A stretch of 64,000 nt of DNA from Planctomycetota bacterium (GTDB lineage Bacteria > Planctomycetota > Planctomycetia > Planctomycetales > Planctomycetaceae): assembly GCA_039045975.1 (NCBI GenBank), contig JBCCJA010000005.1, positions 15,009-79,008 on the forward strand. The letters are read 5' to 3'. Position numbers and translations under genes: made by a program. Below are positions 6,358 through 62,416 of the stretch, in pieces. The notes beneath the pieces are model-generated. The model did not search any database, was not told the origin of the DNA, and saw only the letters and a program-made list of their open reading frames with translations. How positions within the stretch are numbered: position 1 is the first letter of the stretch; each line of letters begins with the position of its first letter.

Positions 6358-7221
6358 ATGCGGCCTCGAATGTCCGAGACTTCGATTCCCCCGCCGAGAA
6401 TCGGGCCCGTCCCGTCTCAGATCGGACCTTCGGGGATTCAAGTCTTTGAAAGCCGACATGCCGACTCTTTCCGGATGCCGGTCGAGTCGCACCGTTACCC
6501 GGAGTTACTCTATGTCCGGTCCGGGGCGGGAACGGCGACCATCGAACCGGCCGACGGGGCCACCATGACCGAGCGTTGCGAATCGGGCGACGGCCTCCTA
6601 TTCCCGACCCGCTCCCGACACGTCGTCACCGACGTCCCCGGACAACCGCTCTGGGTCTACGGGCTCGCCGTCGACCCGAGATCGATGGCCCCGTTCGCCG
6701 ACCTCGAGCCCTTCCTCCCGAACGGCCGCCTCCCGCGGATACGGGCCGTACTCCCCGACATCGAAGCCCGCTTCAGAAGACTCCTCTTCCTCGACGCCTC
6801 CGGCGATATCCCCGACCGTCTCGCCGCGACCGCCGCCGCCCTCGACATCTTCGTGACGCTCGCGCGGACCGTCCCGACAACCGCACGGCCCGCAGGCGGG
6901 ACCGACCCGCTCGACGAATACCTGCGGTGGCTGTCACGAAACTTTTACGAACGGCTCACGGTCGCCGACGGGGCCGACCGCTGCGGGCTCTCCCGCCGCA
7001 CATTCACCGCAAAAATGAAGGAGCGGACCGGTCAGACGTGGCTCGCCCACGTCCACGGACGAAGGATCGACTACGCCGTCCGACTCCTACGATCGACCGA
7101 CGAACCCGTCACGTCCATCGCCTTCCGCGCCGGCTTCGAAGAACTCTCGACGTTTTACCGGGCGTTCAAGCGACACACCGGCCGCAAACCGCTCGACTAC
7201 CGCGGGCCCGAATCTTCATAA
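6358..7221 (+). CDS. AraC-family transcriptional regulator (cupin sensor domain plus AraC HTH)
   Basis: The C-terminus, CGLSRRTFTAKMKERTGQTWLAHVHGRRIDYAVRLLRSTDEPVTSIAFRAGFEELSTFYRAFKRHTGRKPLDYR, is a canonical double AraC HTH. Confidence 0.85.
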   Translation: MRPRMSETSIPPPRIGPVPSQIGPSGIQVFESRHADSFRMPVESHRYPELLYVRSGAGTATIEPADGATMTERCESGDGLLFPTRSRHVVTDVPGQPLWVYGLAVDPRSMAPFADLEPFLPNGRLPRIRAVLPDIEARFRRLLFLDASGDIPDRLAATAAALDIFVTLARTVPTTARPAGGTDPLDEYLRWLSRNFYERLTVADGADRCGLSRRTFTAKMKERTGQTWLAHVHGRRIDYAVRLLRSTDEPVTSIAFRAGFEELSTFYRAFKRHTGRKPLDYRGPESS

Positions 7222-7339
7222 CGCCGCAGCCGAAGGCACGGCCCAAGGGTACGGCCTACAAAAACCTGACCGACACTAAGCCCATTCAGATCGCCGGCGA
7301 CCGGCGGTGTCACGCGGTTCGGTACCGATCGCGTCCGGT

Positions 7340-7381
7340 AAAAATAAAAACCGCGGACAGGGACCCAACCCCTGCCCGCGG
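7340..7381 (-). terminator. Intrinsic terminator downstream of the MarR gene
   Basis: CCGCGGACAGGG (7351-7362) pairs with CCCTGCCCGCGG (7370-7381) with one mismatch and a 7-nt loop. On the minus strand it is followed by TTTTTATTTTT (7340-7350). It lies 31 nt after the MarR stop. Confidence 0.55.
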
Positions 7382-7411
7382 CAACCCCGCGATCACGTAT
7401 TGAGGTTCCGC

Positions 7412-8158
7412 TCAGGCGGCCCGACGCACCGTATCGACCCCGTCGTCCGCCCGGTCCAACCCGGTCGAGAGGGCTTCGAGCAGCTCCGCGAACGTCATCC
7501 TGCGGTCGACCTCGATGTGGCCCAGCACCCGCTCGGCTTCCTGGTCGTACACAACCGTCGCCTCCTCGAGCAGCCGACGGCCTTCCTCGGTGAGCATCAA
7601 CACCCGCTTCCGACGGTCCGACTTCGACCGTAGGCGATACAGCAACTGCGACGCCCGCATCCGCTCGACGAGCGTGCTGATCGACGATTCGCACTGCCCG
7701 AGCTTGTTCGCCAGATGGGCCTGCGTGCAGCCGTGCGGGGCCGAGTCGCGGATCACCTTGAGCGCCACGAACCGGGCGTCCGATAACTTCAGGCCGGCAA
7801 ACTTCGAATCCAACGCCCCACGCAGGCGATGACCGGCGTGCAGCAGGGCCTCGACGAGAGCGCCCGGCGACGCCGGCGACTGCTCGTCGGCGTCGGCGGG
7901 AACTTCGGGCTCGATACGGCCCGCGATCGAAGGACCGGCCTGATGGGCCGCTGGAGAAGGCACCGGCTCCGGCCGGACCTCTTCGAATGTGTGTTGCGAA
8001 ACGACAGGCGACGGCGTCGGCAAGACCGGGCCGAAGGCCGAGGACAAGCCCAGCCCGCCGATAGTCCCGGCCGACAGCGGATAAGACTCGACCCCCTTCG
8101 GATCGGTCTCGGGTGACGACACCTGACGGTTCAGATCGGGTCGATTCGGCTCGGTCAT
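7412..8158 (-). CDS. MarR-family transcriptional regulator with a ~100-aa low-complexity N-terminal extension
   Basis: The winged-helix block LSDARFVALKVIRDSAPHGCTQAHLANKLGQCESSISTLVERMRASQLLYRLRSKSDRRKRVLMLTEEGRRLL is present. The N-terminal P/S-rich third has weaker GC3, so the real start could be internal. Confidence 0.8.
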   Translation of the reverse strand: MTEPNRPDLNRQVSSPETDPKGVESYPLSAGTIGGLGLSSAFGPVLPTPSPVVSQHTFEEVRPEPVPSPAAHQAGPSIAGRIEPEVPADADEQSPASPGALVEALLHAGHRLRGALDSKFAGLKLSDARFVALKVIRDSAPHGCTQAHLANKLGQCESSISTLVERMRASQLLYRLRSKSDRRKRVLMLTEEGRRLLEEATVVYDQEAERVLGHIEVDRRMTFAELLEALSTGLDRADDGVDTVRRAA

Positions 8159-8305
8159 CTGGAGAATCCCATCCAGCGGCGGAAGCGCTGGCCCGGCTCA
8201 CGGGCCTGTCGTTACCCCCTACTTCGTCCGCGAACCGCGTCAAGCTGTAACGATTCTCCTGTTTTTTCCGCGAAACGACCGGCACGACCGTAATCACCGT
8301 CACAT

Positions 8306-12662: not shown

Positions 12663-13403
12663 ATGGCACGAAACAAGGGTTCGAAAAAACGCGTTACTGG
12701 CCACCGCGACAAGCACCGTTCTGTCGCAATCCCCACAAAACGCACTTTCGTTTACATCGACGGATTCAACCTCTACTACGGCATTCGCGACGCTGAACTC
12801 AGACGCTTTCTCTGGCTTGATGTTCTGAAACTCGCAAATTCGTTCATGCAGAAGGATCGCGTCCTCAGCAGGACGAAATACTTCACCGCAAGAATTCGAG
12901 GCGTGAATCGCCGCGATACGCCTGACGAAGCAAAAGCACGCGAGTCAAGCAGACTCCGGCAAAAGACGTATCTCGAAGCTGTACAATCACTTCCGGCAAC
13001 CGATGTGATCGAAGGTCATTTTCTGTGGAAGAACGCTAAGTGCGGCTCCTGCAATTCCCCGAATGTCTCAGCAGAAGAGAAGCTTACAGACGTAAACATC
13101 GCATCAGAAATGCTTTGCGATGCATTCTTGGGGCGGTTTGATCTGGCGATCGTCGTTTCTGGTGACAGCGACTTGAGCCCACCGATCGAACGCATCCGAC
13201 AGCATTTCCCTGCGAAGCCCGTTTTTGTGGCTTTTCCACCCAAGAGGCAGTCAGAACAACTCAAGGCAGTTGCGACAAGCCACTTTGACATCGCGGAAGA
13301 CCGACTGCGGAAGTGTCAGTTCCCAGATCAGCTGACCCTGCCATCCGGAGTGATTTTGAACCGGCCGAAGAAGTGGGCACCTCAGCCACCCGGTGCTGCT
13401 TGA
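12663..13403 (+). CDS. NYN (LabA-like, PIN-fold) domain protein with a Cys-containing insert
   Basis: FVYIDGFNLYYG, TDVNIASEMLCDA and LAIVVSGDSDLSPPIE are the acidic NYN/PIN catalytic blocks. CGSCNSP lies in the insert. GC content is clearly lower than in neighbouring genes. Confidence 0.75.
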   Translation: MARNKGSKKRVTGHRDKHRSVAIPTKRTFVYIDGFNLYYGIRDAELRRFLWLDVLKLANSFMQKDRVLSRTKYFTARIRGVNRRDTPDEAKARESSRLRQKTYLEAVQSLPATDVIEGHFLWKNAKCGSCNSPNVSAEEKLTDVNIASEMLCDAFLGRFDLAIVVSGDSDLSPPIERIRQHFPAKPVFVAFPPKRQSEQLKAVATSHFDIAEDRLRKCQFPDQLTLPSGVILNRPKKWAPQPPGAA

Positions 13404-14266
13404 TTGCCCAAAACACCAAACTCACCCTCGCTTACGATGGCACCAATTACGCCGGTTGGCAGATCCAGCCCGACGAACCGACCGTGCAGGCCGTTCTCCA
13501 AGACGCCCTCAAAGAACTCTTCGGCACGAAGCTATCCGTCCTTAGCGCCGGCCGCACCGACGCCGGTGTCCACGCCGCAGGGCAGGTCGCCAACTTCCGT
13601 CATGACCACACGATCCCGCACGACGGCGTCCTCCTCGGCCTCAACACGCACCTGCCGCCCGACGTCGCAGTGCTCGCCGTCGAAGACGTCCCGCACGACT
13701 TCCACGCGACGCACGACGCGACCACGAAAACCTACCGCTACGTCTTCCACGACGGCACCGCCCGCGACCCCCTCTCCGCCCGCTTCACCGGACGGGCCAA
13801 ACGGCCGCTCGACGCCGACCTAATGGGCGAGGCCGCGAAACACATCGTCGGCCGCCACGACTTCGCCTGCTTCGAGACCCAGGGCTCACCCCGCCCCGAC
13901 ACCGTCCGCACCGTCTTCGACTGCACCGTCCGTCGCGTCGCCGCCTGGAACCCGTTCCGGCCAGATAAAAGCCCGAGCGGTCACGCGAAGGGCATGCGGC
14001 CCGACGACTCGTCCGACCCTTCGCGTGACCGCTCGGGCTTCGATACCCAAGGCGTCCAACCCTTCGTCGTCATCGAGGTCGCCGGCGACGGCTTCCTCTA
14101 CAACATGGTCCGGGCGATCGCGGGCACGCTCGCCGACGTCGGCGGCGGGAAGCGACCGCCGGAAAGCGTCCGGGCGTTAATCGCCTCGACCGATCGGACC
14201 CTCGCGGGCCCGACGGCACCGGCCTCCGGCCTTTGCCTTGTTGCCGTCCGTTACGACGACGCCTGA
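13400..14266 (+). CDS. truA: tRNA pseudouridine(38-40) synthase
   Basis: LTLAYDGTNYAGWQIQ, SAGRTDAGVHAAGQVANF (catalytic Asp) and GDGFLYNMVRAIAG are present. I place the start at the in-frame TTG at 13400, overlapping the NYN stop (TTGA). The track start at 13313 would overlap the NYN gene by 91 nt. Confidence 0.88.
   Translation: MIAQNTKLTLAYDGTNYAGWQIQPDEPTVQAVLQDALKELFGTKLSVLSAGRTDAGVHAAGQVANFRHDHTIPHDGVLLGLNTHLPPDVAVLAVEDVPHDFHATHDATTKTYRYVFHDGTARDPLSARFTGRAKRPLDADLMGEAAKHIVGRHDFACFETQGSPRPDTVRTVFDCTVRRVAAWNPFRPDKSPSGHAKGMRPDDSSDPSRDRSGFDTQGVQPFVVIEVAGDGFLYNMVRAIAGTLADVGGGKRPPESVRALIASTDRTLAGPTAPASGLCLVAVRYDDA
13969..14040. repeat. Perfect 24-bp inverted repeat with a 24-nt spacer, embedded in frame within truA
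   Basis: AAGCCCGAGCGGTCACGCGAAGGG (13969-13992) is the exact reverse complement of CCCTTCGCGTGACCGCTCGGGCTT (14017-14040). I checked this base by base and anchored it to the truA reading frame. Confidence 0.9.
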
Positions 14267-14279
14267 CGCCATCCCGTCG

Positions 14280-15416
14280 TCAGAACGACACCTGGTTGCC
14301 GTCGTTCATCCGCAAGATGTTCAGCCAGACCTGCCGATCGATCGTCACCGCAATAGACCGGACCGAGGCGTCGCAGAGGGCCGCGTTCATCGCGCCGTCG
14401 TGCCACGTGCCGAAGCCACGCGGCGACGGCACGGGCGCCTGGGTCGCCTCGTCACTGCCGCTGTCGACGCCGCCTTGCACCGTGTCGGTGTCCAACGCAC
14501 CGTCCGGTTCGGAGCCGCCGACACCGGCACCCTCGTAATCGAACTCGAGTGTCCCGAGTAACGACCGGTTGTACGTCGAGGCTTCCACGCCGCGGTAAAT
14601 GTGACCGATACCCGGCTTGAACGCGCCGATGTTCCGTCGGCCGTCGGACCACAAGCCGATCAGCGACTCGCCGGCCAGCAGCGTGTTCGTCTCGCCGTCG
14701 ACGATGTCACGGAACCGCGTCGAGGAGTTCTCGCCGAACACCCCGTCGGAGAACCGCTCCAACGCCGTGTCGGCTTCGCCGTCCCCGTCGGTGTCGGCCG
14801 CGAAAAACTCGCGGACGCCGCCGTTGCCGATGTAATTCGTCCACTTCACGCCCGAGTTACCCGCACCGCGTTCCGGTAACGCCGCGCTCGGGCAGATGTA
14901 GCTCGGGATCGGATACGTCATCGCCGCGATGTTGTCGGCCGTAAAACGGCTTTCGAAGTACGGGATGTCGTCGTCGATCAGGTCGAGCGTGTTCCGCTCG
15001 CCGACCTCCGACAAGATCGACATATGCCAGCCCCAGAAGTTCGAAATCGACATCGCCGTCACGGTCCGGTACGGGCTGACCGTCGCCGCCGACGCCTGAT
15101 TGTCGAGCGTCACGGGCGGACTGACCGACAGCGCGCTGCTCTGGAACGCGGGCAGAATCGTCACGCTGTCGGGGTCGTCGTCGGTATCGAACCGGCCCTC
15201 GACCCAACCCGGCGGGAACGTGTTCCAGGTGTTGAAGTAGTTGTGCAGCGCCAGCGCGACCTGCTTCATGTTGTTCGCACACTGCGTCCGCCGGGCCGAC
15301 TCACGGGCCTGCTGCACGGCCGGGAGCAGCAACGCGATCAGCAGCACGATGATCGCCATCACCACGAGCAACTCGACGAGTGTGAAGCCGCGTCGCACGT
15401 CACGCCGTTGTCGCAT
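14280..15416 (-). CDS. DUF1559-family protein with a prepilin-type N-terminal cleavage/methylation domain
   Basis: [53 protein letters not shown] is the hallmark planctomycete DUF1559 / type II pseudopilin-like N-terminus. Confidence 0.88.
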
Positions 15417-21974: not shown

Positions 21975-23466
21975 CGTCGCTCTCGCTAACGCCGAACTTA
22001 TCCAAACGCATGGTAACGCCGCCGTCCCCGACGGCCGAAACCGCCGCTTGAGTTTCGCCCTCCGGAGACGCCGGCGGCTCAAGTTCGGGGAACAGACCGG
22101 TCTGAAACAGGATCAGCACGTACAACGCGATCTCGATCATCTGCACGAGCAGGATCGTCCCCCCGAGCTTCAAGAACTCCGGCCAGCCGACCGACACCCC
22201 GGCCTCTTTCTTCAGCGTGTAGAGCGCGATCACGCAGCTGATCGACCCGATCGGCGTCCCGTTGCCGCCGAGGTTGCACGCCAACACCAGCGTCCACCAC
22301 AACGGCTCGTCGGGCACGCCCGAGGCGATCAGGTCTTTCGTGATCGGGATCAGCGTCGCGGCGACGGGGATGTTGTCGACGATCGCCGACGCGACCGCGC
22401 TGAAGACCGTCAACAACGGCACGAGCACGACGACGTTCCCGGCCGACAGCGCCGCGACCTGCTCCGCCAACCACGCGAGCGCCCCCGTCGCCTGCACACA
22501 GCCGATGATCAGGAACAGGCCGAGGAAGAACAGGATCACCGTCCAGTTCACCTTCGCGATCGCGTCCTCGACGCCCTTCGACGTGAACGGCTCCCGTCCC
22601 GCGACGAGCAACGCCAGCGTCCCGCCCGCCATCGCCACGAAGTCGACCCCGACGCCGAGCGAATTCGCCGCCGCGAAACCGGTCACCGTCAGGCCCAGCA
22701 CGACCGCCGAGCGGACCAGCATCGACCGGCTCTCGATGACCGACCACGGGTCGAACGCGTCGACCTTCGCCGCCAACTCGGCCCGCACCTCCGCCGGCTG
22801 CGACCACGCGATGTCGTTCGCGAACTGCCACCGCAACAACGCGATCGCCGTCACCGCGGACAGCACCGCGAACGGCAGTGAGACTTCCAAGAACTGGACG
22901 TACGGGATCTCCGCCGCCGTCCCGATCATGATGTTCGGCAGGCCGCTGGCGAACGTCGCGATCGCCCCGCTGTTCGCACAGATCGCGACCGACAGCATGT
23001 ACGGCTTCGGGTCGTAATCGAGCGTCTTGCAGATCACGAGCGTCAGCGAGCCGAGGATCAGCATCGCCGGGACGATCGTCAGCACGGCCACGAACAAGAA
23101 CGTCAGCCCGCACAGCGCGAAGTACAGCGTCGAAGCCCGCCCCCGCGTCGCCCGTACGATCGACAAGCCGAGGAAATGAAACAGCCCGCTCCGGCCCGTC
23201 ACGTCGACGAGGATCCCGGTGCCGATGATGACCCCGAAGATGTTCAGATCGTGTTCGATGATCCGGTAGACCTGTCCGTACTCGAACAGGCCGAGCCCGA
23301 GCGCAGTCGTCACGAGCACGACCGCCCCGCACAACGCCGCGACCGTCTTATGGAAGCGGTCGGCCGCCACGCCGACGAATGTCAGCAGCATCCCGACCGC
23401 GAACACGGTCATGACCCAAGCCGGTGACTCCCCGGCGGCTTCCGCGGCGGCCAAACACGGCGACAT
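21886..23466 (-). CDS. ArsB/NhaD (SLC13/CitMHS-like) permease family transporter
   Basis: Polytopic hydrophobic protein. FGVIIGTGILVD, ICANSGAIATFASGLPNIMIG and ACNLGGNGTPIGS are hairpin-loop motifs typical of this ion-transporter superfamily. Confidence 0.8.
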   Translation of the reverse strand: MSPCLAAAEAAGESPAWVMTVFAVGMLLTFVGVAADRFHKTVAALCGAVVLVTTALGLGLFEYGQVYRIIEHDLNIFGVIIGTGILVDVTGRSGLFHFLGLSIVRATRGRASTLYFALCGLTFLFVAVLTIVPAMLILGSLTLVICKTLDYDPKPYMLSVAICANSGAIATFASGLPNIMIGTAAEIPYVQFLEVSLPFAVLSAVTAIALLRWQFANDIAWSQPAEVRAELAAKVDAFDPWSVIESRSMLVRSAVVLGLTVTGFAAANSLGVGVDFVAMAGGTLALLVAGREPFTSKGVEDAIAKVNWTVILFFLGLFLIIGCVQATGALAWLAEQVAALSAGNVVVLVPLLTVFSAVASAIVDNIPVAATLIPITKDLIASGVPDEPLWWTLVLACNLGGNGTPIGSISCVIALYTLKKEAGVSVGWPEFLKLGGTILLVQMIEIALYVLILFQTGLFPELEPPASPEGETQAAVSAVGDGGVTMRLDKFGVSESDDVTTEVCFPFVAGVSVCGDGGLRRVVSRG

Positions 23467-28792: not shown

Positions 28793-30342
28793 GCAGCCAC
28801 GGCCACGGCGTCGCCGACCTCGTCCGCCGCCTGCCGCGCGGCTGGCGACGCCCGGCGATCCAGAAGCTCCGCATCGTCTTCGAGCGGATCCGCCGGCTCT
28901 CCGCGAAGACGCCCGCCGAGTTCCGCCGACGGCTCCGCCTCACGCCGCTCGACCAAGTCACCCTCGGCGACCGTCTGACCGACTGGCAGAAACGCGACTT
29001 CGCCGCCCTCGACGACGCCTGGACGCGTCTGGCAAAGATCGGCCCGACCGACGACCGCCCGGTCGTCCGCCGGGCCTACCTCGAACGCCCGCGGGGGCAC
29101 TCGAAGACGACCGACCTCGCCGTCCAACTGGCCTGGCTGCTCCGCTTCTCGCCGGTCCGGCTCCGCGGCGTCGTCGCCGCCGCCGACCGCGAGCAGGCGA
29201 AGCTGCTCAAGGACGCCCTCGCCGGCATCGCCGCCGCCAACCCGCAATGGCTCGGACAGCTCAAGTTCCGGGCCGACTCGGTCGGCAATCCGATCACAGG
29301 CTCCGAGGCGACGTTTCTCGCCTCGCACGTCGCCAGTTCGTACGGACTGACGCCCGATTTCGTCGTCTGCGACGAACTCTGCCATTGGACGAAAGAGGAA
29401 TTCTGGCAGTCGCTCGTCTCCGCCGCGGGGAAGCGGCCCGACTGCGTCCTCGTCGTCCTCAGCAATGCCGGCAGCGGGCACGACTGGCGCTGGGACGCAC
29501 GGGAAGCGGCACGCCTCGGCGCGACGGCCGACACGCAATCACCGACCTGGCATTTTTCGACGCTCGACGGCCCGCAGGCCCCGTGGGTCACGGAAGAATC
29601 ACTCGCCGAACAACGCCGCCTGCTCCCGACGGCCGTCTTCGAGCGGCTGTGGCTCAACCGCTGGCAACAGGCCGAGGGGAGCCTGTTCACGCCGACCGAG
29701 GTCGAAGCCTGCGTCGACGACTCGCTCGCCGAGCGCGACGTAGGAACACCCGGAGTCCGTTACGTCGCCGCCGCCGACTACGCAGAAAAACACGACCTGA
29801 CCGCCTGCGTCGTCCTGCACCAAGAACCGACCGAGGACGGCGGCGACCGCATCGTCATCGACCGGCTCGACGTGTTCGTGCCGACGCCCGAAAAACCGAC
29901 GCCCGTCCGGGTCGTCCGCGATTGGATCGTCCGCACCGCCGCCGCCTTCGGCGACGTCCGCTTCGTCGTCGACGAGTTCCAACTCGCCGGCATGGTCCAA
30001 GAGCTCGAGCCGTCGCTCGACGTATCGCGGTTCGAGTTCGCGTCGGGACGCGGCAACCACGAACTCGCGCTCCGCCTCCGCCGCGCGGTCGCCGAGACGC
30101 GTCTCATCTGGCCCCCAGGCTGCGGCGCGAGACCCGACCGGCCCGACGACGACCTGGCGGCGGAGCTGATCGCGTTGAAAATGATCGAACGGCCGAACGG
30201 CCGCGTGCGGATCGATCACGACCGGCTCGGCCACGACGACCGCGCTTTCGCCGTCGGGGCGGCGCTCGTCGAACTCGGACGCACGGACACGACGTCCGCT
30301 CCGGAAACGCTCGAGATCGAACAGGGACGCCTGCTCGACTGA
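28789..30342 (+). CDS. Phage terminase large subunit-like protein
   Basis: GTG at 28789 overlaps the preceding stop. Walker-A-like PRGHSKTTD, Walker-B-like FVVCDELCHW, and nuclease-half acidic blocks YVAAADYAEKHD, FVVDEFQ, GHDDRAFA. The upstream part of the 566-aa track ORF is R-rich shadow. Confidence 0.8.
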   Translation: MSSHGHGVADLVRRLPRGWRRPAIQKLRIVFERIRRLSAKTPAEFRRRLRLTPLDQVTLGDRLTDWQKRDFAALDDAWTRLAKIGPTDDRPVVRRAYLERPRGHSKTTDLAVQLAWLLRFSPVRLRGVVAAADREQAKLLKDALAGIAAANPQWLGQLKFRADSVGNPITGSEATFLASHVASSYGLTPDFVVCDELCHWTKEEFWQSLVSAAGKRPDCVLVVLSNAGSGHDWRWDAREAARLGATADTQSPTWHFSTLDGPQAPWVTEESLAEQRRLLPTAVFERLWLNRWQQAEGSLFTPTEVEACVDDSLAERDVGTPGVRYVAAADYAEKHDLTACVVLHQEPTEDGGDRIVIDRLDVFVPTPEKPTPVRVVRDWIVRTAAAFGDVRFVVDEFQLAGMVQELEPSLDVSRFEFASGRGNHELALRLRRAVAETRLIWPPGCGARPDRPDDDLAAELIALKMIERPNGRVRIDHDRLGHDDRAFAVGAALVELGRTDTTSAPETLEIEQGRLLD

Positions 30343-30388: not shown

Positions 30389-30469
30389 GTAGGGCCCCCG
30401 CCTGCCGCATTTCGAGCATACGTGACGCCTGAGATCACCGGAAATTCGGCAGGCGGGGGCCTGCCCTAC
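30389..30469. repeat. Long imperfect palindrome between convergent TerL and rfbD (bidirectional terminator or boundary element)
   Basis: GGCCCCCGCCTGCCG (30393-30407) is the exact reverse complement of CGGCAGGCGGGGGCC (30447-30461). Pairing extends inward (ATTTC/GAAAT after one mismatch) and outward (GTAG/CTAC across a 4-nt bulge). Confidence 0.6.
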
Positions 30470-30486: not shown

Positions 30487-31362
30487 CTAAGAGCTTTCCC
30501 GGATGACCTTCATGTGACGGCCCAGCGCGTCTTCCCAAGAGGGCATCTGACGCCCGATCACGCCCGCGAGCTTCGACGTATCGAGCACCGAATAGGGCGG
30601 ACGGGCCGCCGGGGCACCGAACTCGGCCGAGGTGATCGCCCGCACTTCGGTCGGCAGGCCGGCCTCGGCGAAAATCTTCCGGGCGAACCGGCACCACGTC
30701 GTCGTGCCGCCGTTCACGGCGTGATACAGACCGTACGCATCGGTTCCGCAGAGCTCGATCAGCGCCGCCGCGAGATCGACCGTCGAGGTCGGCGTGCAGT
30801 ACTGGTCATCGACGACCGTCAAGACGGGACGACTCTCCGCGAGCCGGAGCATCGTCTTCACGAAACTACCTTTATCAGGCGCCGCAGACCCATACAGACC
30901 GCAGGTTCTCACGACGAAATGCCGGCGGCAGGCCTGGCGGACGAAGTACTCGCCCGCGAGCTTGCTGACCGCGTAGGCGCTCAGCGGGCCGGGGGCCGCG
31001 TCCTCGCGATACGGTTCGCCCCGCATCCCCGCCGACCCGAACACGAAGTCGGTGCTCACGTGCACGAGAACGAGCCCGAGCTCGTCGCAGACCTTCGCCA
31101 AGTTTCGCGGACCTTCGGCGTTCACACGGAACGCGGCCGCAGGTTCCGACTCGGCCTTATCGACCGCGTTGTACGCCGCGCAGTTAATCACGACGCCGAC
31201 GCCCGCGGCCGCGATCGTCTCCTCGGCCCTCGGATCGGTGATATCGAGCCGGTCTCGGGACAGCCCGACGGCCCGCTCGTCCAACATGCCGCACAGCTCG
31301 GCACCCAACTGGCCCTCGGCGCCGGTAATAAGAATCCGCGGGCCGTCCCCCGTCACACTCAT
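30487..31362 (-). CDS. rfbD: dTDP-4-dehydrorhamnose reductase
   Basis: RILITGAEGQLGAEL (NAD fold), VHVSTDFVF and YAVSKLAGE (YxxxK) are present. Confidence 0.88.
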   Translation of the reverse strand: MSVTGDGPRILITGAEGQLGAELCGMLDERAVGLSRDRLDITDPRAEETIAAAGVGVVINCAAYNAVDKAESEPAAAFRVNAEGPRNLAKVCDELGLVLVHVSTDFVFGSAGMRGEPYREDAAPGPLSAYAVSKLAGEYFVRQACRRHFVVRTCGLYGSAAPDKGSFVKTMLRLAESRPVLTVVDDQYCTPTSTVDLAAALIELCGTDAYGLYHAVNGGTTTWCRFARKIFAEAGLPTEVRAITSAEFGAPAARPPYSVLDTSKLAGVIGRQMPSWEDALGRHMKVIRESS

Positions 31363-33985: not shown

Positions 33986-34158
33986 CCCGGCCGCCGAGAA
34001 CGTTCGCGCGCGGGCCTTCTCACCGCGAAGCATTTTCTAACGACTGCGGGGACTTTGACGCCCGGATCGGTCATGCCGGTCCTGCCGCCCGTCGATGTCT
34101 GTGATGACCGTCGGGAACACCGGGCGGAGAAACGCGCGTGCCACGGAAAGTGCGGACG

Positions 34159-35265
34159 ATGGGTTTGACGCGGACCGCGATCATCTTGGCCGGCATGACG
34201 CCGCTCGCCCTGTCGGCAGGCTGCGCGAGCGTGCCGACCGGGACGGTGTTGCTCGACACGCCGACCGAACTGAACAAGGTCACGCTGCCGACCTACCGGA
34301 TCGAGCCGCCCGACGTGCTGCAGATCGAATCGACGCGCAACGTCCGGCGGCCCGACGACCTCCTACGGCCCGGCGACGACCTCATCATCGAAGCGGCCAA
34401 CTCCCTGCCGCTCGAAACCGACATCGACCCCGACCTCTATCCGGCCGAATATCGGGCCGCGATCGACCGCGAGGCGACGTTCAAGTTCATCAACGGTCCC
34501 TACAGGATCGGCCCGGACGGGACCGTCGACCTCGGCCCGTATTACGGCAAGGTCGCGCTTGCCGGGCTGACGCTCGCCCAAGCCCGCGACGCGGTCGACG
34601 CTCACCTCGTCGACGGCACGGGGCTCCGCGACCCGCTCGTGACGGTCAACTACGGGTCGGTCAACGTGGAACAACTCGTGACCGGCGAGCACCTCGTCCG
34701 CCCCGACGGCACGGTCGACCTCGGCACGTTCGGGCAGGTCAACGTCGCCGGGCTGACGTTGGAGCAGGCCGAGCAGGTCGTCGCGACCGCCATGTCGGCC
34801 TTCGTCGTCGAGCCGGAGGTCGAGATCGACGTCCTCGCCTTCAACAGCAAATCGTTTTACGTGATCACCGACGGCGGCGGCTTCGGCGAGCAGGTCGTCA
34901 AGCTCCCGATCGTCGGCAACGAGACGGTCCTCGACGCGATCAGCGAGACCCAGGGCCTGTCCCAGGTCTCGAGCAAAAACATCTGGGTCGCCCGGCCCGC
35001 GCCGGCCGGCACCGGCGTCGCCCAGATCTTGCCGGTCCACTGGGAAGAGATCGCCCAGGAGGGCATCACCGACACGAACTACCAGCTCTTCCCCGGCGAC
35101 CGCGTCTACGTGAAGGCCGACCGCCTGATCAAGCTCGACAACTTCCTCGTCAAGGTGACCGCGCCGATCGAACGCGTCTTCGGCGTCATCATCCTCGGCG
35201 ACGACGCGGTCGAATCGCTGCAGTTCGTTCAGACCGGCGCCGGCCTCGGCGGCCTCGGCCCGTAA
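34159..35265 (+). CDS. Polysaccharide export protein (Wza-like; Poly_export plus SLBB domains), lipoprotein
   Basis: Lipobox LALSAGC. LRPGDDLIIEA, YRIGPDGTVDLGPYYGKVALAGLTLAQARDAV and a second copy VRPDGTVDLGTFGQVNVAGLTLEQAEQVV. Confidence 0.82.
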   Translation: MGLTRTAIILAGMTPLALSAGCASVPTGTVLLDTPTELNKVTLPTYRIEPPDVLQIESTRNVRRPDDLLRPGDDLIIEAANSLPLETDIDPDLYPAEYRAAIDREATFKFINGPYRIGPDGTVDLGPYYGKVALAGLTLAQARDAVDAHLVDGTGLRDPLVTVNYGSVNVEQLVTGEHLVRPDGTVDLGTFGQVNVAGLTLEQAEQVVATAMSAFVVEPEVEIDVLAFNSKSFYVITDGGGFGEQVVKLPIVGNETVLDAISETQGLSQVSSKNIWVARPAPAGTGVAQILPVHWEEIAQEGITDTNYQLFPGDRVYVKADRLIKLDNFLVKVTAPIERVFGVIILGDDAVESLQFVQTGAGLGGLGP

Positions 35266-35338
35266 CCGACGCACGGCCGGGCCGCATGGACGCGTCCGCA
35301 CGAAATTCACCGTCGACCCGAGATCGGAAGTCTCCTCG

Positions 35339-36049
35339 ATGCGATATTCAGTCCTGATTCTGGTCGCGACGATCGCCGCCGGCCGGCCGGCGGCGGCCGC
35401 GGACAACGCGACCCCCGTCGACTTCTCTCTCGAATCGCTGCCCTGGGACGATTTCGAGCACGCGTCGGGTAACGGGGCGGGGACGCTGGCGACCGCCGAC
35501 GGCATCAATCCCGTCAATGCGTCTGTCACGCAAACCGAGACGTCCGCGTCTCCGCGAGCACCACGTCTTATGCCGGTGTCAGAGGCCATCGTCCCGGTCG
35601 CCCTGCCGTCTCACGACCCGCGGACCGATATGTCCGCCGCCGACTCGGACGCGACACCCGCCGTTTTCTCCCGGCCCGTCACGGCGCCCGCCGGGGCCGT
35701 CACTCTGACGGCCGGACACGCTCCTCTCGCCTGCGACGTTGACGCCTCGTGCATACCCGAAGATGCGTCTTACCTGTCGAAGATCTCCCGCGTCTTCCGG
35801 GACAAAGCCAGCCTCTTCCTCGGCAAGAAGCGAGAGCAGGAACGGAAGATCGAATACGTCTTCGAGTTCCCCACCGTTCTGCCGTCGGGCTGCCCCTACG
35901 GCTACTACGAACCGAACTGGCAGCCGTTCTGCGATCCGGCCTGCCCGCCGTCGGACGTCGGCGTCCGCATCTTCGACCGGGCCCACGTCCCGGCACCGGC
36001 CCGACCCGCGTCGCTGCCGGCCCCCGCGCCGGTTCTGCCCGCCGAATGA
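35339..36049 (+). CDS. Hypothetical secreted protein
   Basis: Signal-like MRYSVLILVATIAAGRPAAAA. Acceptable GC3. No recognisable domain. Confidence 0.5.
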   Translation: MRYSVLILVATIAAGRPAAAADNATPVDFSLESLPWDDFEHASGNGAGTLATADGINPVNASVTQTETSASPRAPRLMPVSEAIVPVALPSHDPRTDMSAADSDATPAVFSRPVTAPAGAVTLTAGHAPLACDVDASCIPEDASYLSKISRVFRDKASLFLGKKREQERKIEYVFEFPTVLPSGCPYGYYEPNWQPFCDPACPPSDVGVRIFDRAHVPAPARPASLPAPAPVLPAE

Positions 36050-61100: not shown

Positions 61101-61304
61101 TTGACGATCACCGCGACCCGCGACGGCAACCAGACCTGGACCGCCTCGGCCGACATCGAACCGGCCAAGGCGGCCGTCGGCCTCAGCCCCGACCACGCCT
61201 TTAGCCAGTTGGTCATGCTGCTCGAGGTCGACTTCGCGTTCCGGCAGGCCCTACGCCGCACCGCGGTGATGCCCGGGCGGGTCGTCTGGCAATTTAACGC
61301 TTAA
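61101..61304 (+). CDS. Small hypothetical protein (67 aa)
   Basis: TTG start. Nearly every third codon position is G/C. The TAA stop overlaps the truD ATG (TAATG). No recognisable domain. Confidence 0.4.
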   Translation: MTITATRDGNQTWTASADIEPAKAAVGLSPDHAFSQLVMLLEVDFAFRQALRRTAVMPGRVVWQFNA

Positions 61305-62416
61305 TGCCGGCGGCCCGGTACGACGCCCCGGCGGATCAGGAGCGACTCGGCATCGCGGCCCGAGTCCCGCGGCTCACCGACGCGACGCGTCCGCAGGCGT
61401 CTTTAAAATCGACGCCCGAAGACTTCCGCGTCACCGAGATCCCCGCCTACGAGACCTGCGGGCACGGCGAGCACCTGTTTCTCAACATCGAGAAACGTGA
61501 CCTGTCGCACGAGCGGGCGATCGACCTCCTCGCCCGCACGCTCGGCGTCAAAAAGGCCGACGTCGGCACCGCCGGCATGAAAGACCGCCGGGCCGTCACA
61601 CGACAATTCGTATCGATACCGGCCGAGACCGAGGACCAACTCGAACGGCTCACCGGACTCGAATTCGACGACGGCTCATACGTCCGCCTGCTCGGCAAAG
61701 ACCGGCACACGAACAAGCTCAAGACCGGGCACCTCCGCGGCAACCGCTTCGAGATCGTCGCCCGCACCGAAGTGCCGGTCGACGTCGACGCCTTCGGCCC
61801 GACGGCCGAGGCCGTCCGCCGAGTCGGCTTCCCGAACGCGTTCGGGGCCCAACGCTTCGGCGACCGCGGCTCGACCCTCGCTCTCGGGCTGAACCTGCTC
61901 ACAGGTGAAGCCGACGTCCGCGACATCCCGCCACGGCGTCGCAAGTTTCTGAGCCGGCTCGCCCTCTCGGCGGCCCAATCGGCGGTCTTCAATCACGTGC
62001 TCGCCGCCCGGGTCCGCGGCGACGCCGTCGCGACCGTCCTGCCGGGCGACGTCCTCCGCAAGCGGCCGTCGGGCGGCGTATTCGTCGCGGCCGACGTCGC
62101 AGCCGAACAGGCCCGCGTCGACGCAGGCGAGACCGCCGTCACCGGCCCGCTGCCCGGACCGTCGATGACCTCACCGACCGGCCCCGCCGCCGATCTCGAA
62201 AGCGAGGCCCTCGACGCCTTCGGCCTCGCGCCCGAGATGTTCGGCAAGTTCCCGAAGCTCGCCCCCGGCGCCCGCCGCCCGCTGACGGTGATCCCGGGCG
62301 ACCTGGCGATCGGGCCCGTCGACGGCGGCGTACGCTTCTCCTTCACGTTGCCCGCGGGTGCCTACGCGACGACACTCCTGGACCAATTCGTTGCCGCCCC
62401 CGACGCCGCGAAATGA
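61304..62416 (+). CDS. truD: tRNA pseudouridine(13) synthase
   Basis: EDFRVTEIPAYETCGHGEHLFLNIEKRDLSHERAIDLLARTLGVKKADVGTAGMKDRRAVTRQFVSI (catalytic Asp in GMKD) and NAFGAQRFG. Confidence 0.9.
   Translation: MPAARYDAPADQERLGIAARVPRLTDATRPQASLKSTPEDFRVTEIPAYETCGHGEHLFLNIEKRDLSHERAIDLLARTLGVKKADVGTAGMKDRRAVTRQFVSIPAETEDQLERLTGLEFDDGSYVRLLGKDRHTNKLKTGHLRGNRFEIVARTEVPVDVDAFGPTAEAVRRVGFPNAFGAQRFGDRGSTLALGLNLLTGEADVRDIPPRRRKFLSRLALSAAQSAVFNHVLAARVRGDAVATVLPGDVLRKRPSGGVFVAADVAAEQARVDAGETAVTGPLPGPSMTSPTGPAADLESEALDAFGLAPEMFGKFPKLAPGARRPLTVIPGDLAIGPVDGGVRFSFTLPAGAYATTLLDQFVAAPDAAK

Follow-up and report, generated by a model that had tools for sequence, protein, structure and literature searches.

A perfect 24-bp inverted repeat in a disordered loop of a planctomycete truA gene, probably written by local replication template switching

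We analysed a perfect inverted repeat that lies within truA, the gene for tRNA pseudouridine 38-40 synthase, on contig JBCCJA010000005.1 (114,420 bp) of a Planctomycetota metagenome-assembled genome (MAG). The window referred to below is the 64,000-nt stretch of this contig that was analysed, and all positions are window coordinates. The truA coding sequence occupies 13400-14266 on the plus strand; its 288-aa product matches PF01416 (E=2e-40) and is identical (100%) to the 288-aa NCBI protein MEM7810421.1. Translation is annotated to begin at the TTG at 13400 rather than at the GTG at 13313, so the mechanically called 317-aa open reading frame (ORF) that begins at 13313 is 29 codons too long. 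The alignment shows all family-invariant TruA residues to be present in the window protein, and its AlphaFold model superimposes on E. coli TruA (1dj0) with a TM-score of 0.91, normalised to the target, and a root-mean-square deviation of 1.2 A. The gene, also called hisT, is conserved yet not essential in E. coli or Salmonella.

Both arms of the repeat lie on the plus strand, the left arm, AAGCCCGAGCGGTCACGCGAAGGG, at 13969-13992 and the right arm, CCCTTCGCGTGACCGCTCGGGCTT, at 14017-14040. Each is 24 nt long, and they are complementary at 24/24 positions across a 24-nt spacer (13993-14016) that would form the loop of the hairpin and is open in frame in both orientations. The left arm encodes KSPSGHAKG, and the whole 72-nt unit (13969-14040) keeps the truA frame and encodes KSPSGHAKGMRPDDSSDPSRDRSGF. 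Every pair of the 24-bp stem is of the Watson-Crick type, with zero G-U pairs, and the repeat ranks first among the inverted repeats of the window. The predicted minimum free energy (MFE) of the RNA hairpin was -60.5 kcal/mol, compared with -36.1 +/- 3.6 kcal/mol for dinucleotide shuffles (z -6.7), and 0 of 200 shuffles equalled it; the DNA fold gave -37.7 kcal/mol (z -6.6). An initial annotation, made by inspection of the sequence, had described a perfect 24-bp inverted repeat with a 24-nt spacer, placed in frame between two conserved blocks of TruA, beyond chance expectation and capable of forming a very stable mRNA hairpin, and our results bear out each of these points. For comparison, the short perfect inverted repeats with spacers of up to 70 bp found in a survey of E. 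coli K-12 all had arms shorter than 20 bp (PMC5941160). As potential side effects, the repeat could give rise to a very stable structure in the truA mRNA and to a cruciform in the DNA. Codon usage and GC content of the insert resemble those of the gene (GC at third codon positions, GC3, 0.84 vs. 0.81) and are uninformative on its origin.

The repeat lies in a hypervariable loop that the alignment delimits to 13949-14062 (plus strand, 38 codons), between a conserved W and the conserved FVV strand. This stretch has 38 residues in the window protein and 16 in its 25 nearest short-loop relatives, and E. coli TruA makes only a tight turn of 4-5 residues here (...TRHGPYVVV...). The short E. coli connector mentioned in the initial annotation was therefore correct, as was its view that the stretch is extra relative to orthologues, whereas its length of about 30 residues has to be corrected to the 38 from W to FVV. 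Among the 118 planctomycete homologues in which both of two fixed anchors were found, the anchor-to-anchor distance ranged from 18 to 118 residues, with a mode of 35; in the window protein it is 57. In the AlphaFold2 model, residues ~211-250 (numbered on the 317-aa ORF) form a coil with a predicted local distance difference test score (pLDDT) of 43-57, held between antiparallel strands 198-209 and 251-259. The hairpin-bearing stretch is thus predicted to be a disordered surface loop at the tip of a beta-hairpin, a placement that the initial annotation had suggested checking by structure prediction. We conclude that the extra loop material is real and that it is located where the TruA fold tolerates insertion. 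The closest TruA proteins are 55-60% identical to the window protein. Among the short-loop relatives, L016 is a syntenic orthologue that shares the gene order truA, DUF1559 (minus strand) and serA, and the loops of L015 and L016 contained no unusual hairpin.

Comparison with these relatives suggested that the two arms differ in their history. The L016 loop reads W-AVMSPDVEPSRSDAG-PFVV. In the window loop, whose first part is W-NPFRPDKSPSGHAKG, the P-D, P-S and G are spaced as they are in L016. We built a position-specific profile of the loop on the 25 short-loop relatives, including L016, and slid it along the 38-residue loop of the window protein. One placement alone scored positively, at offset 0 directly after the W, with +6.6 bits for 15 residues (shuffles, -16.3 +/- 7.0; P=0.002 at offset 0 and P=0.033 for the maximum over all offsets), and the nine residues encoded by the left arm scored +4.3 bits by themselves (P=0.016). 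The left arm therefore looks like native loop sequence. Because it does, we place the extra DNA not at the 72-nt unit but at 13994-14053 on the plus strand, a putative insertion of 60 nt or 20 codons which is a reconstruction supported by the loop profile. The initial annotation, which had proposed that the whole 72-nt unit was inserted, was right that extra DNA is present but apparently not about its limits. It had also held that a homologous peptide without palindromic DNA in orthologues would speak against an insertion: the left-arm peptide indeed has counterparts in relatives, while the right arm and the spacer have none.

When 13994-14053 is left out, the protein reads W-NPFRPDKSPSGHAKG-VQ-PFVV, a loop of normal length, and the DNA reads ...CGCGAAGGGC|GTCCAACCCTTCGTC...; the ancestral junction predicted by a template-switch model is ...GCGAAGGGC|GTCCAACCCTTCG.... 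This reconstructed ancestor holds a 7-bp inverted repeat, CGAAGGG-n7-CCCTTCG (13986-92 / 14060-66), in which the CCCTTCG of the native downstream junction is complementary to the CGAAGGG at the end of the left arm, and its DNA is predicted to fold on that stem. Much of the insert resembles neighbouring truA DNA. The segment CGTCCGACCCTTCG (14010-14023, plus strand) matches CGTCCAACCCTTCG, the native downstream junction (14053-14066, plus strand; encoding ..VQPFV), as a direct copy at 13/14 positions, and it shares 7 nt (CCCTTCG) with the start of the right arm. The segment GCTTCGATACCCAAGGC (14037-14053, plus strand; GFDTQG) is a 15/17 direct, in-frame copy of a CFETQG-coding sequence, GCTTCGAGACCCAGGGC, which lies at 13869-13885 on the plus strand within the conserved TruA motif DFACFETQGSPR; this copy shares 4 nt (GCTT) with the end of the right arm. 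For the first piece of the insert, ATGCGGCCCGACGACT (13994-14009, plus strand), a search of 13400-14700 gave no template of more than 9 nt; CGGCCCGAC (13997-14005) matches CGGCCAGAT (13958-13966) at 7/9 positions. As a control, we searched 500 segments of the same window for direct local copies around an equivalent 24-nt block. The left boundary of the block was straddled by such copies in 4.2% of the controls and the right one in 5.8%; in 0.2% (1/500) they straddled both. Straddling of the boundaries is a prediction of template switching and not of a transposon model. We also considered a tandem duplication of a loop unit, [FM]RPDxxPSxxxxG. The second unit fitted the profile only with a 2-residue gap (P=0.03), its self-similarity to the first was marginal (P=0.065) and the DNA identity by hand count was ~49%; such a duplication is a possible contributor but was not adopted as the main model.

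We consider it probable that the hairpin is a local insertion made by replication template switching in several steps, a by-product of replication error rather than a mobile element. The order of jumps that we infer starts from an ancestral loop W-NPFRPDKSPSGHAKG-VQ-PFVV, in which the 7-bp repeat CGAAGGG-n7-CCCTTCG would have seeded a fold-back. The nascent strand, having copied CCCTTCG, would have folded onto CGAAGGG and copied the preceding native sequence backwards, which would make the left arm the template and the 24-nt right arm the new copy. At the 4-nt GCTT microhomology, the strand would then have jumped 168 nt upstream, into the segment that codes for CFETQG, and have copied 13 further bases before returning to the native template at ...GGC|GTCCAA, whereupon the conserved FVVIEV strand would have been re-copied intact. 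This templated chain would add 43 nt, a shift of +1 in frame, and 17 nt of other origin (+2) would bring the sequence back into frame, so that truA would have grown by 60 nt (20 codons) in all. The insert may have survived because a disordered loop at a beta-hairpin tip is simply made longer while the FVVIEV strand stays intact. Most likely, the hairpin has no current function and is neutral. The perfection of the arms could be maintained by further template switching from arm to arm. Template switching has been described to make perfect stems in one event and to maintain them (PMC8794818), to perfect inverted repeats in bacteria (PMC5941160), and to rewrite coding DNA, inversion of the spacer included (PMC8604942).

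In several respects, the truA hairpin resembles known template-switch or quasi-palindrome mutations. Ripley reportedly put forward a model for such template-switch or quasi-palindrome correction in 1982. The right arm is an exact reverse complement (24/24) of adjacent sequence that is probably native, a short (7-bp) inverted repeat in the reconstructed ancestor would seed the fold-back, and the junctions of the insert fall at microhomologies of 7 and 4 nt that adjoin the 13/14 and 15/17 local copies. Like such mutations, it is single-copy, could have arisen in one event in coding DNA, and would have changed several residues together. It differs from them in size and complexity: the arm is 24 bp, at least three jumps would be needed, the net gain is 60 nt, and 17 nt are without an identified template, while the yeast coding cases changed no more than five neighbouring residues. 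The truA hairpin works like a member of the large, complex end of this class.

Several observations weigh against an origin by template switching. The ancestor is reconstructed and not observed, since no relative closer than 55-60% identity is available. For the initial 16-17 nt of the insert, we could identify no local template. At least two direct patches occurred in 5.7% of the controls, so that the number of patches alone is marginal, and we devised the boundary-straddling test when the patches were already known to us. Each patch has one or two mismatches and the arms have none, which implies that the events differ in age, that the arms were homogenised, or that the copying was error-prone. 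Of the source genome, the search for further copies described below took in the 64 kb of the window, with the other ~50 kb of this contig and all other contigs beyond its reach. The 24/24/24 layout resembles that of doublets of repetitive extragenic palindromic (REP) sequences found at the same loop elsewhere (23/28/23 and 23/23/23). Finally, the arm shows weak self-complementarity, a feature expected of a REP: it folds on itself at -9.1 kcal/mol, compared with -4.9 +/- 2.1 kcal/mol for shuffles (p=0.035), through two 3-bp blocks that do not form a continuous stem.

The last three points bear on the possibility, close to what the initial annotation had proposed by likening the unit to a Rickettsia palindromic element (RPE), that the 72-nt unit is a miniature palindromic mobile element inserted in frame. 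It could be of the REP doublet (REPIN), miniature inverted-repeat transposable element (MITE) or RPE type, its family having few copies, being extinct or residing in the unsampled part of the genome. Removal of 13969-14040 would also leave a plausible loop of 14 residues, WNPFRPDNDTQGVQPFVV, and intragenic REP dimers that encode 20-30 aa have been documented, in pseudouridine synthase genes among others (PMC3733652). As far as could be tested, however, the hairpin is single-copy within the window and the collections that we searched. The arm did not occur elsewhere in the window with up to 3 mismatches allowed (0.01 occurrences expected by chance), and blastn-short of the window for further copies of the repeat returned nothing longer than 13 nt. 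Among 185,579 GTDB species-representative genomes, a collection that does not include the source MAG, the 20-mer core gave one single-arm match, in a Nocardioides gene, and in JGI metagenomes it gave three single-arm matches, all of which lie in unrelated coding sequence and lack a partner arm. Three of these four unrelated matches (L001, L006 and L007) read ...CCGAGCGGTCACGCGAAGG..., all giving the peptide PSGHAK without a partner arm; they were counted as chance matches in GC-rich coding DNA. An 18-mer from the arm had no match beyond chance in IMG/VR. The copies in the genome and its relatives that the mobile-element proposal led us to look for were thus absent from the window and from GTDB representatives, JGI metagenomes and IMG/VR, with the source MAG not among these collections. 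Peptides from all six frames matched the window TruA alone among 5.8 billion protein clusters, a result that excludes coding copies but not intergenic ones. In a control, a peptide query from a dispersed REP with three copies on one IMG/VR contig likewise matched TruA proteins only, so the peptide search is blind to copies between genes, and to this extent an element with intergenic copies would have escaped it.

Several hallmarks of such elements were also missing from the repeat and its surroundings. The outer ends of the arms read GATAA|AAGCCC and GGGCTT|CGATAC and the inner ends GGG|CATG and TCCGA|CCC. We found no GTAG or CGTC tag at the arm ends, the sole CGTC being 3 nt from one arm without a mirror partner, and GTAG-plus-hairpin motifs in the window were at chance level (4 vs. 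4.2 expected from shuffles). None of the ~50 ORFs of the window encodes a transposase, REP-associated tyrosine transposase (RAYT) or integrase. GATA is present on both flanks (13964-67 and 14042-45) with an offset of 1 nt at either end, an event with an estimated chance of ~3-4%. Although this could be counted in favour of insertion, we considered it too weak to serve as a target-site duplication, since it is only 4 bp long, is offset, and can also be read as an imperfect extension of the stem. Two further findings argue against a foreign element: the left arm is in the register of the native loop (P=0.002-0.016), and the surroundings of the right arm copy neighbouring truA DNA in a manner seen in 0.2% of the controls, which would not be expected of an element from elsewhere. 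With no second copy in the sequences searched, no tag, no transposase in the window, an apparently native left arm and a right arm embedded in local copies, the proposal of an RPE-like mobile insertion is not upheld, and we regard a mobile element of any of these types as unlikely.

A comparison with each type of element leads to the same view. The truA unit shares with REP doublets and REPINs (PMC3733652, PMC3337134) its two inverted units of ~23-24 nt, a spacer of 20-30 nt and a single large hairpin, and its 24/24/24 layout agrees with the definition of two inverted units separated by a 20-100-nt spacer. It also resembles them in adding ~24 aa in frame to a pseudouridine synthase gene, and true doublets are present at the same TruA loop in L002, L009, L010 and L014. 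In contrast, it lacks GTAG and CGTC, is only weakly self-palindromic, has one arm that looks like native coding sequence, and has no other copy that we could find and no RAYT nearby. REP and REPIN families comprise tens to thousands of copies per genome; there is one truA unit in 64 kb. Among the intragenic REP dimers described previously, Smlt0945 of S. maltophilia is the sole truA case, and it affects residues 15-22 at the N-terminal edge and not this loop (PMC3733652). RPEs (reviewed in PMC10969869) are likewise palindromic DNA placed in frame in conserved genes, as surface insertions compatible with the fold. They are, however, ~100-150 bp long, multi-copy and found in Rickettsia, with a conserved peptide (PMC10969869), whereas the truA unit is 72 nt, single-copy and planctomycete. 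The hallmark of RPEs, a shared peptide in unrelated proteins, was not found for the truA unit in six frames among the 5.8 billion clusters. The RPEs are said to have been described by Ogata et al. in 2000. Like a MITE, the truA unit has inverted repeats, but its only flanking repeat is the offset GATA, and no copies and no parent insertion sequence with the same ends were found in the sequences searched. We conclude that the truA hairpin is not an RPE, not a tagged REP or REPIN, and not a demonstrable MITE. With lineage-specific surface-loop insertions it shares the position at a beta-hairpin tip, a hydrophilic composition, predicted disorder and a length that varies among homologues (18-118 aa); ordinary expansions of this kind, in contrast, do not contain a perfect 24-bp inverted repeat.

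Other planctomycetes nonetheless carry repeat DNA in frame at this loop of TruA, and the analogy with RPEs and mobile elements was for that reason a sensible one to draw. GTAG-tagged REP doublets occur there in L002 (3573-3646), L009 (10544-10615) and L010 (772-843). They consist of inverted GTAG-GGTGCGT-nnn-ACGCACC units, arranged in L002 as 23/28/23 nt with 23-nt arms that are 96% complementary; arm pairing is 20/21, 20/21 and 18/21, and thus erodes. The peptide VGCV..GAFHAPY encoded by this doublet is present in six TruA clusters that are mutually 71-93% identical (P0097, P0083, P0052 and P0121-P0123), and a seventh cluster, P0124, was a weak match in the peptide search without this motif. 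Free single copies of the L002-type REP were found three times on one IMG/VR contig (L011 and L012). A different doublet, GTAG-GCCGGGTCGCGACCCGGC; CGTAGGCCGGGTCGCGACCCGGC / GCCGGGTCGCGACCCGGCCTACG, lies in the truA gene of L014 (2084-2152; ENA ERZ27254809 k141_863540), with perfect 23-nt arms, a 23-nt spacer and an 80-nt MFE of -62.5 kcal/mol (z -6.1 relative to the rest of the gene). We found no further copy of it in IMG/VR, the only collection in which it was sought. The truA loops of L003 (3514-3723) and L004 (3514-3678) contain tandem GGGATTR heptamers, read as GLGIGDWGL or GLGIRDRGL, together with a CCCCGCGAC/GTCGCGGGG hairpin (NAPRLRSRGAC); L003 has in addition a GGGGACTGTCCC..AATTTTCG hairpin (DCPNFRPT). 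Free REP copies on the IMG/VR contig (L012, near 4776 and 5804) have this heptamer, as CCCTAAT, on their flanks, and the L003 and L004 loops are therefore built from the ordinary intergenic repeats of the genome. A TruA loop of 59 residues in L013, by comparison, has no hairpin. Taken together, these cases show that the TruA loop filters for insertions that keep the frame, irrespective of where they come from. Intragenic REPs as such have already been described (PMC3733652). The doublets at the TruA loop have some value for REP and REPIN biology and for the evolution of protein loops, as "extragenic" palindromes that persist as coding sequence across proteins 71-93% identical to each other, in a phylum where they have been little studied.

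Upstream of truA lie argH and an NYN-domain gene, and the truA TTG start overlaps the TGA stop of the latter (TTGA, 13400-13403), which suggests translational coupling of the two. Downstream, a gene with DUF1559 and N-terminal methylation domains converges on truA and is followed by serA. The stops of the convergent pair are 13 nt apart (14266-14280), so each transcript must end within the other gene. Read on the minus strand, the hairpin lies ~240 nt beyond the DUF1559 stop and has TTTTAT directly behind it; it is terminator-like in appearance, yet its 24-nt loop is too long. An intrinsic terminator has a GC-rich stem, a loop of 3-8 nt and then a U-tract; the hairpin, which on the minus strand combines a suitable stem with the 24-nt loop and a tail of only TTTTAT, was not called by our terminator scan. 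A search of Rfam 15 with both strands gave no match at the gathering score; the best, to mir-m107-1 with 39.6 bits against a threshold of 83, is a generic likeness between long hairpins.

The convergent stops and the minus-strand TTTTAT would fit a hairpin retained for a function, whether as an RNase III site or translational pause, as an antisense terminator or 3'-end stabiliser against read-through from the DUF1559 gene (stop at 14280), or as a stem-loop bound by TruA. A perfect 24-bp duplex is long enough for RNase III, and hairpins recur at this TruA loop in several lineages. Moreover, the arms have no mismatches while the templated patches have diverged by ~7-10%, for which we estimate a rough Poisson probability of ~0.04. 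The perfection of the arms is, however, equally explained by a recent origin or by homogenisation through template switching, and the restriction to Watson-Crick pairs, without any G-U, points to copying at the DNA level rather than selection at the RNA level. The loop is far outside the norm for terminators, no Rfam family was recognised, and L015 and L016, which are syntenic relatives, do without any hairpin. In the other clade, furthermore, the inherited REP doublet decays, from 20/21 to 18/21 pairs and from -56 to -36 kcal/mol, which indicates that hairpins at this site are not generally maintained. A retained function therefore seems quite unlikely to us.

A broader version of this idea is that the TruA loop of Planctomycetota repeatedly acquires and keeps hairpin DNA because a stem-loop in the truA mRNA is useful, the window hairpin being a convergent, home-made solution. 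It would draw on at least four independent cases (the window hairpin, two different GTAG-tagged REP doublets and other small hairpins), and the stem-loop may serve as a decoy of the anticodon stem-loop that TruA binds for autoregulation, as a programmed pause or as an RNase III site. We consider this very improbable.

The remaining alternative is that the hairpin was produced during assembly, amplification or sequencing, for example as a chimeric template-switch product formed in vitro, in a contig that comes from a single MAG assembly. In-vitro polymerases also form inverted chimeras at microhomologies, the protein is alone in its cluster and comes from one contig, and the hairpin was seen in no independent assembly. 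Against this, the 60-nt change is exactly in frame and open, it falls in the sole insertion-tolerant loop of truA, and it lies in mid-contig with colinear conserved sequence on either side. The patches differ from their sources by point changes, as would be expected of an old event in vivo. Arms of 24 nt are below the usual final k-mers of assemblers and should not tangle the graph, and equivalent hairpins at this loop are present in independent ENA and Logan assemblies. We find an artefact barely credible.

If the origin by template switching is correct, the truA hairpin would be a natural example of a single bout of switching that wrote a long perfect hairpin and 20 residues into a conserved enzyme. 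The case illustrates how protein loops grow, although it opens no new question, and it cautions that a perfect intragenic palindrome alone is no proof of a mobile element.

Elsewhere in the window, a second pseudouridine synthase, TruD (PF01142, E=2e-67), is encoded at 61304-62416, within which the window-wide scan reported no strong inverted repeat. The second-strongest hairpin of the window, at 30389-30469, has 21-nt arms that are 95% complementary and a 27-nt spacer. It lies between convergent ORFs, one of which ends at 30342 and the other, rmlD on the minus strand, at 30487. It begins with GTAG and ends near CTAC, and its right unit, GTAG-GGCAGGC-CCCC-GCCTGCC, is a REP-like stem-loop. The whole hairpin occurs once in the window, and its sequence is not related to that of the truA arm. 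Three long ORFs, at 22079-23332 (minus strand), 34095-35357 (plus strand) and 7197-8303 (minus strand), have a GC3 of 0.44-0.54, compared with ~0.8-0.9 for their neighbours, and no Pfam match; they could be shadows in a wrong frame, or else genes that are foreign or evolve rapidly.

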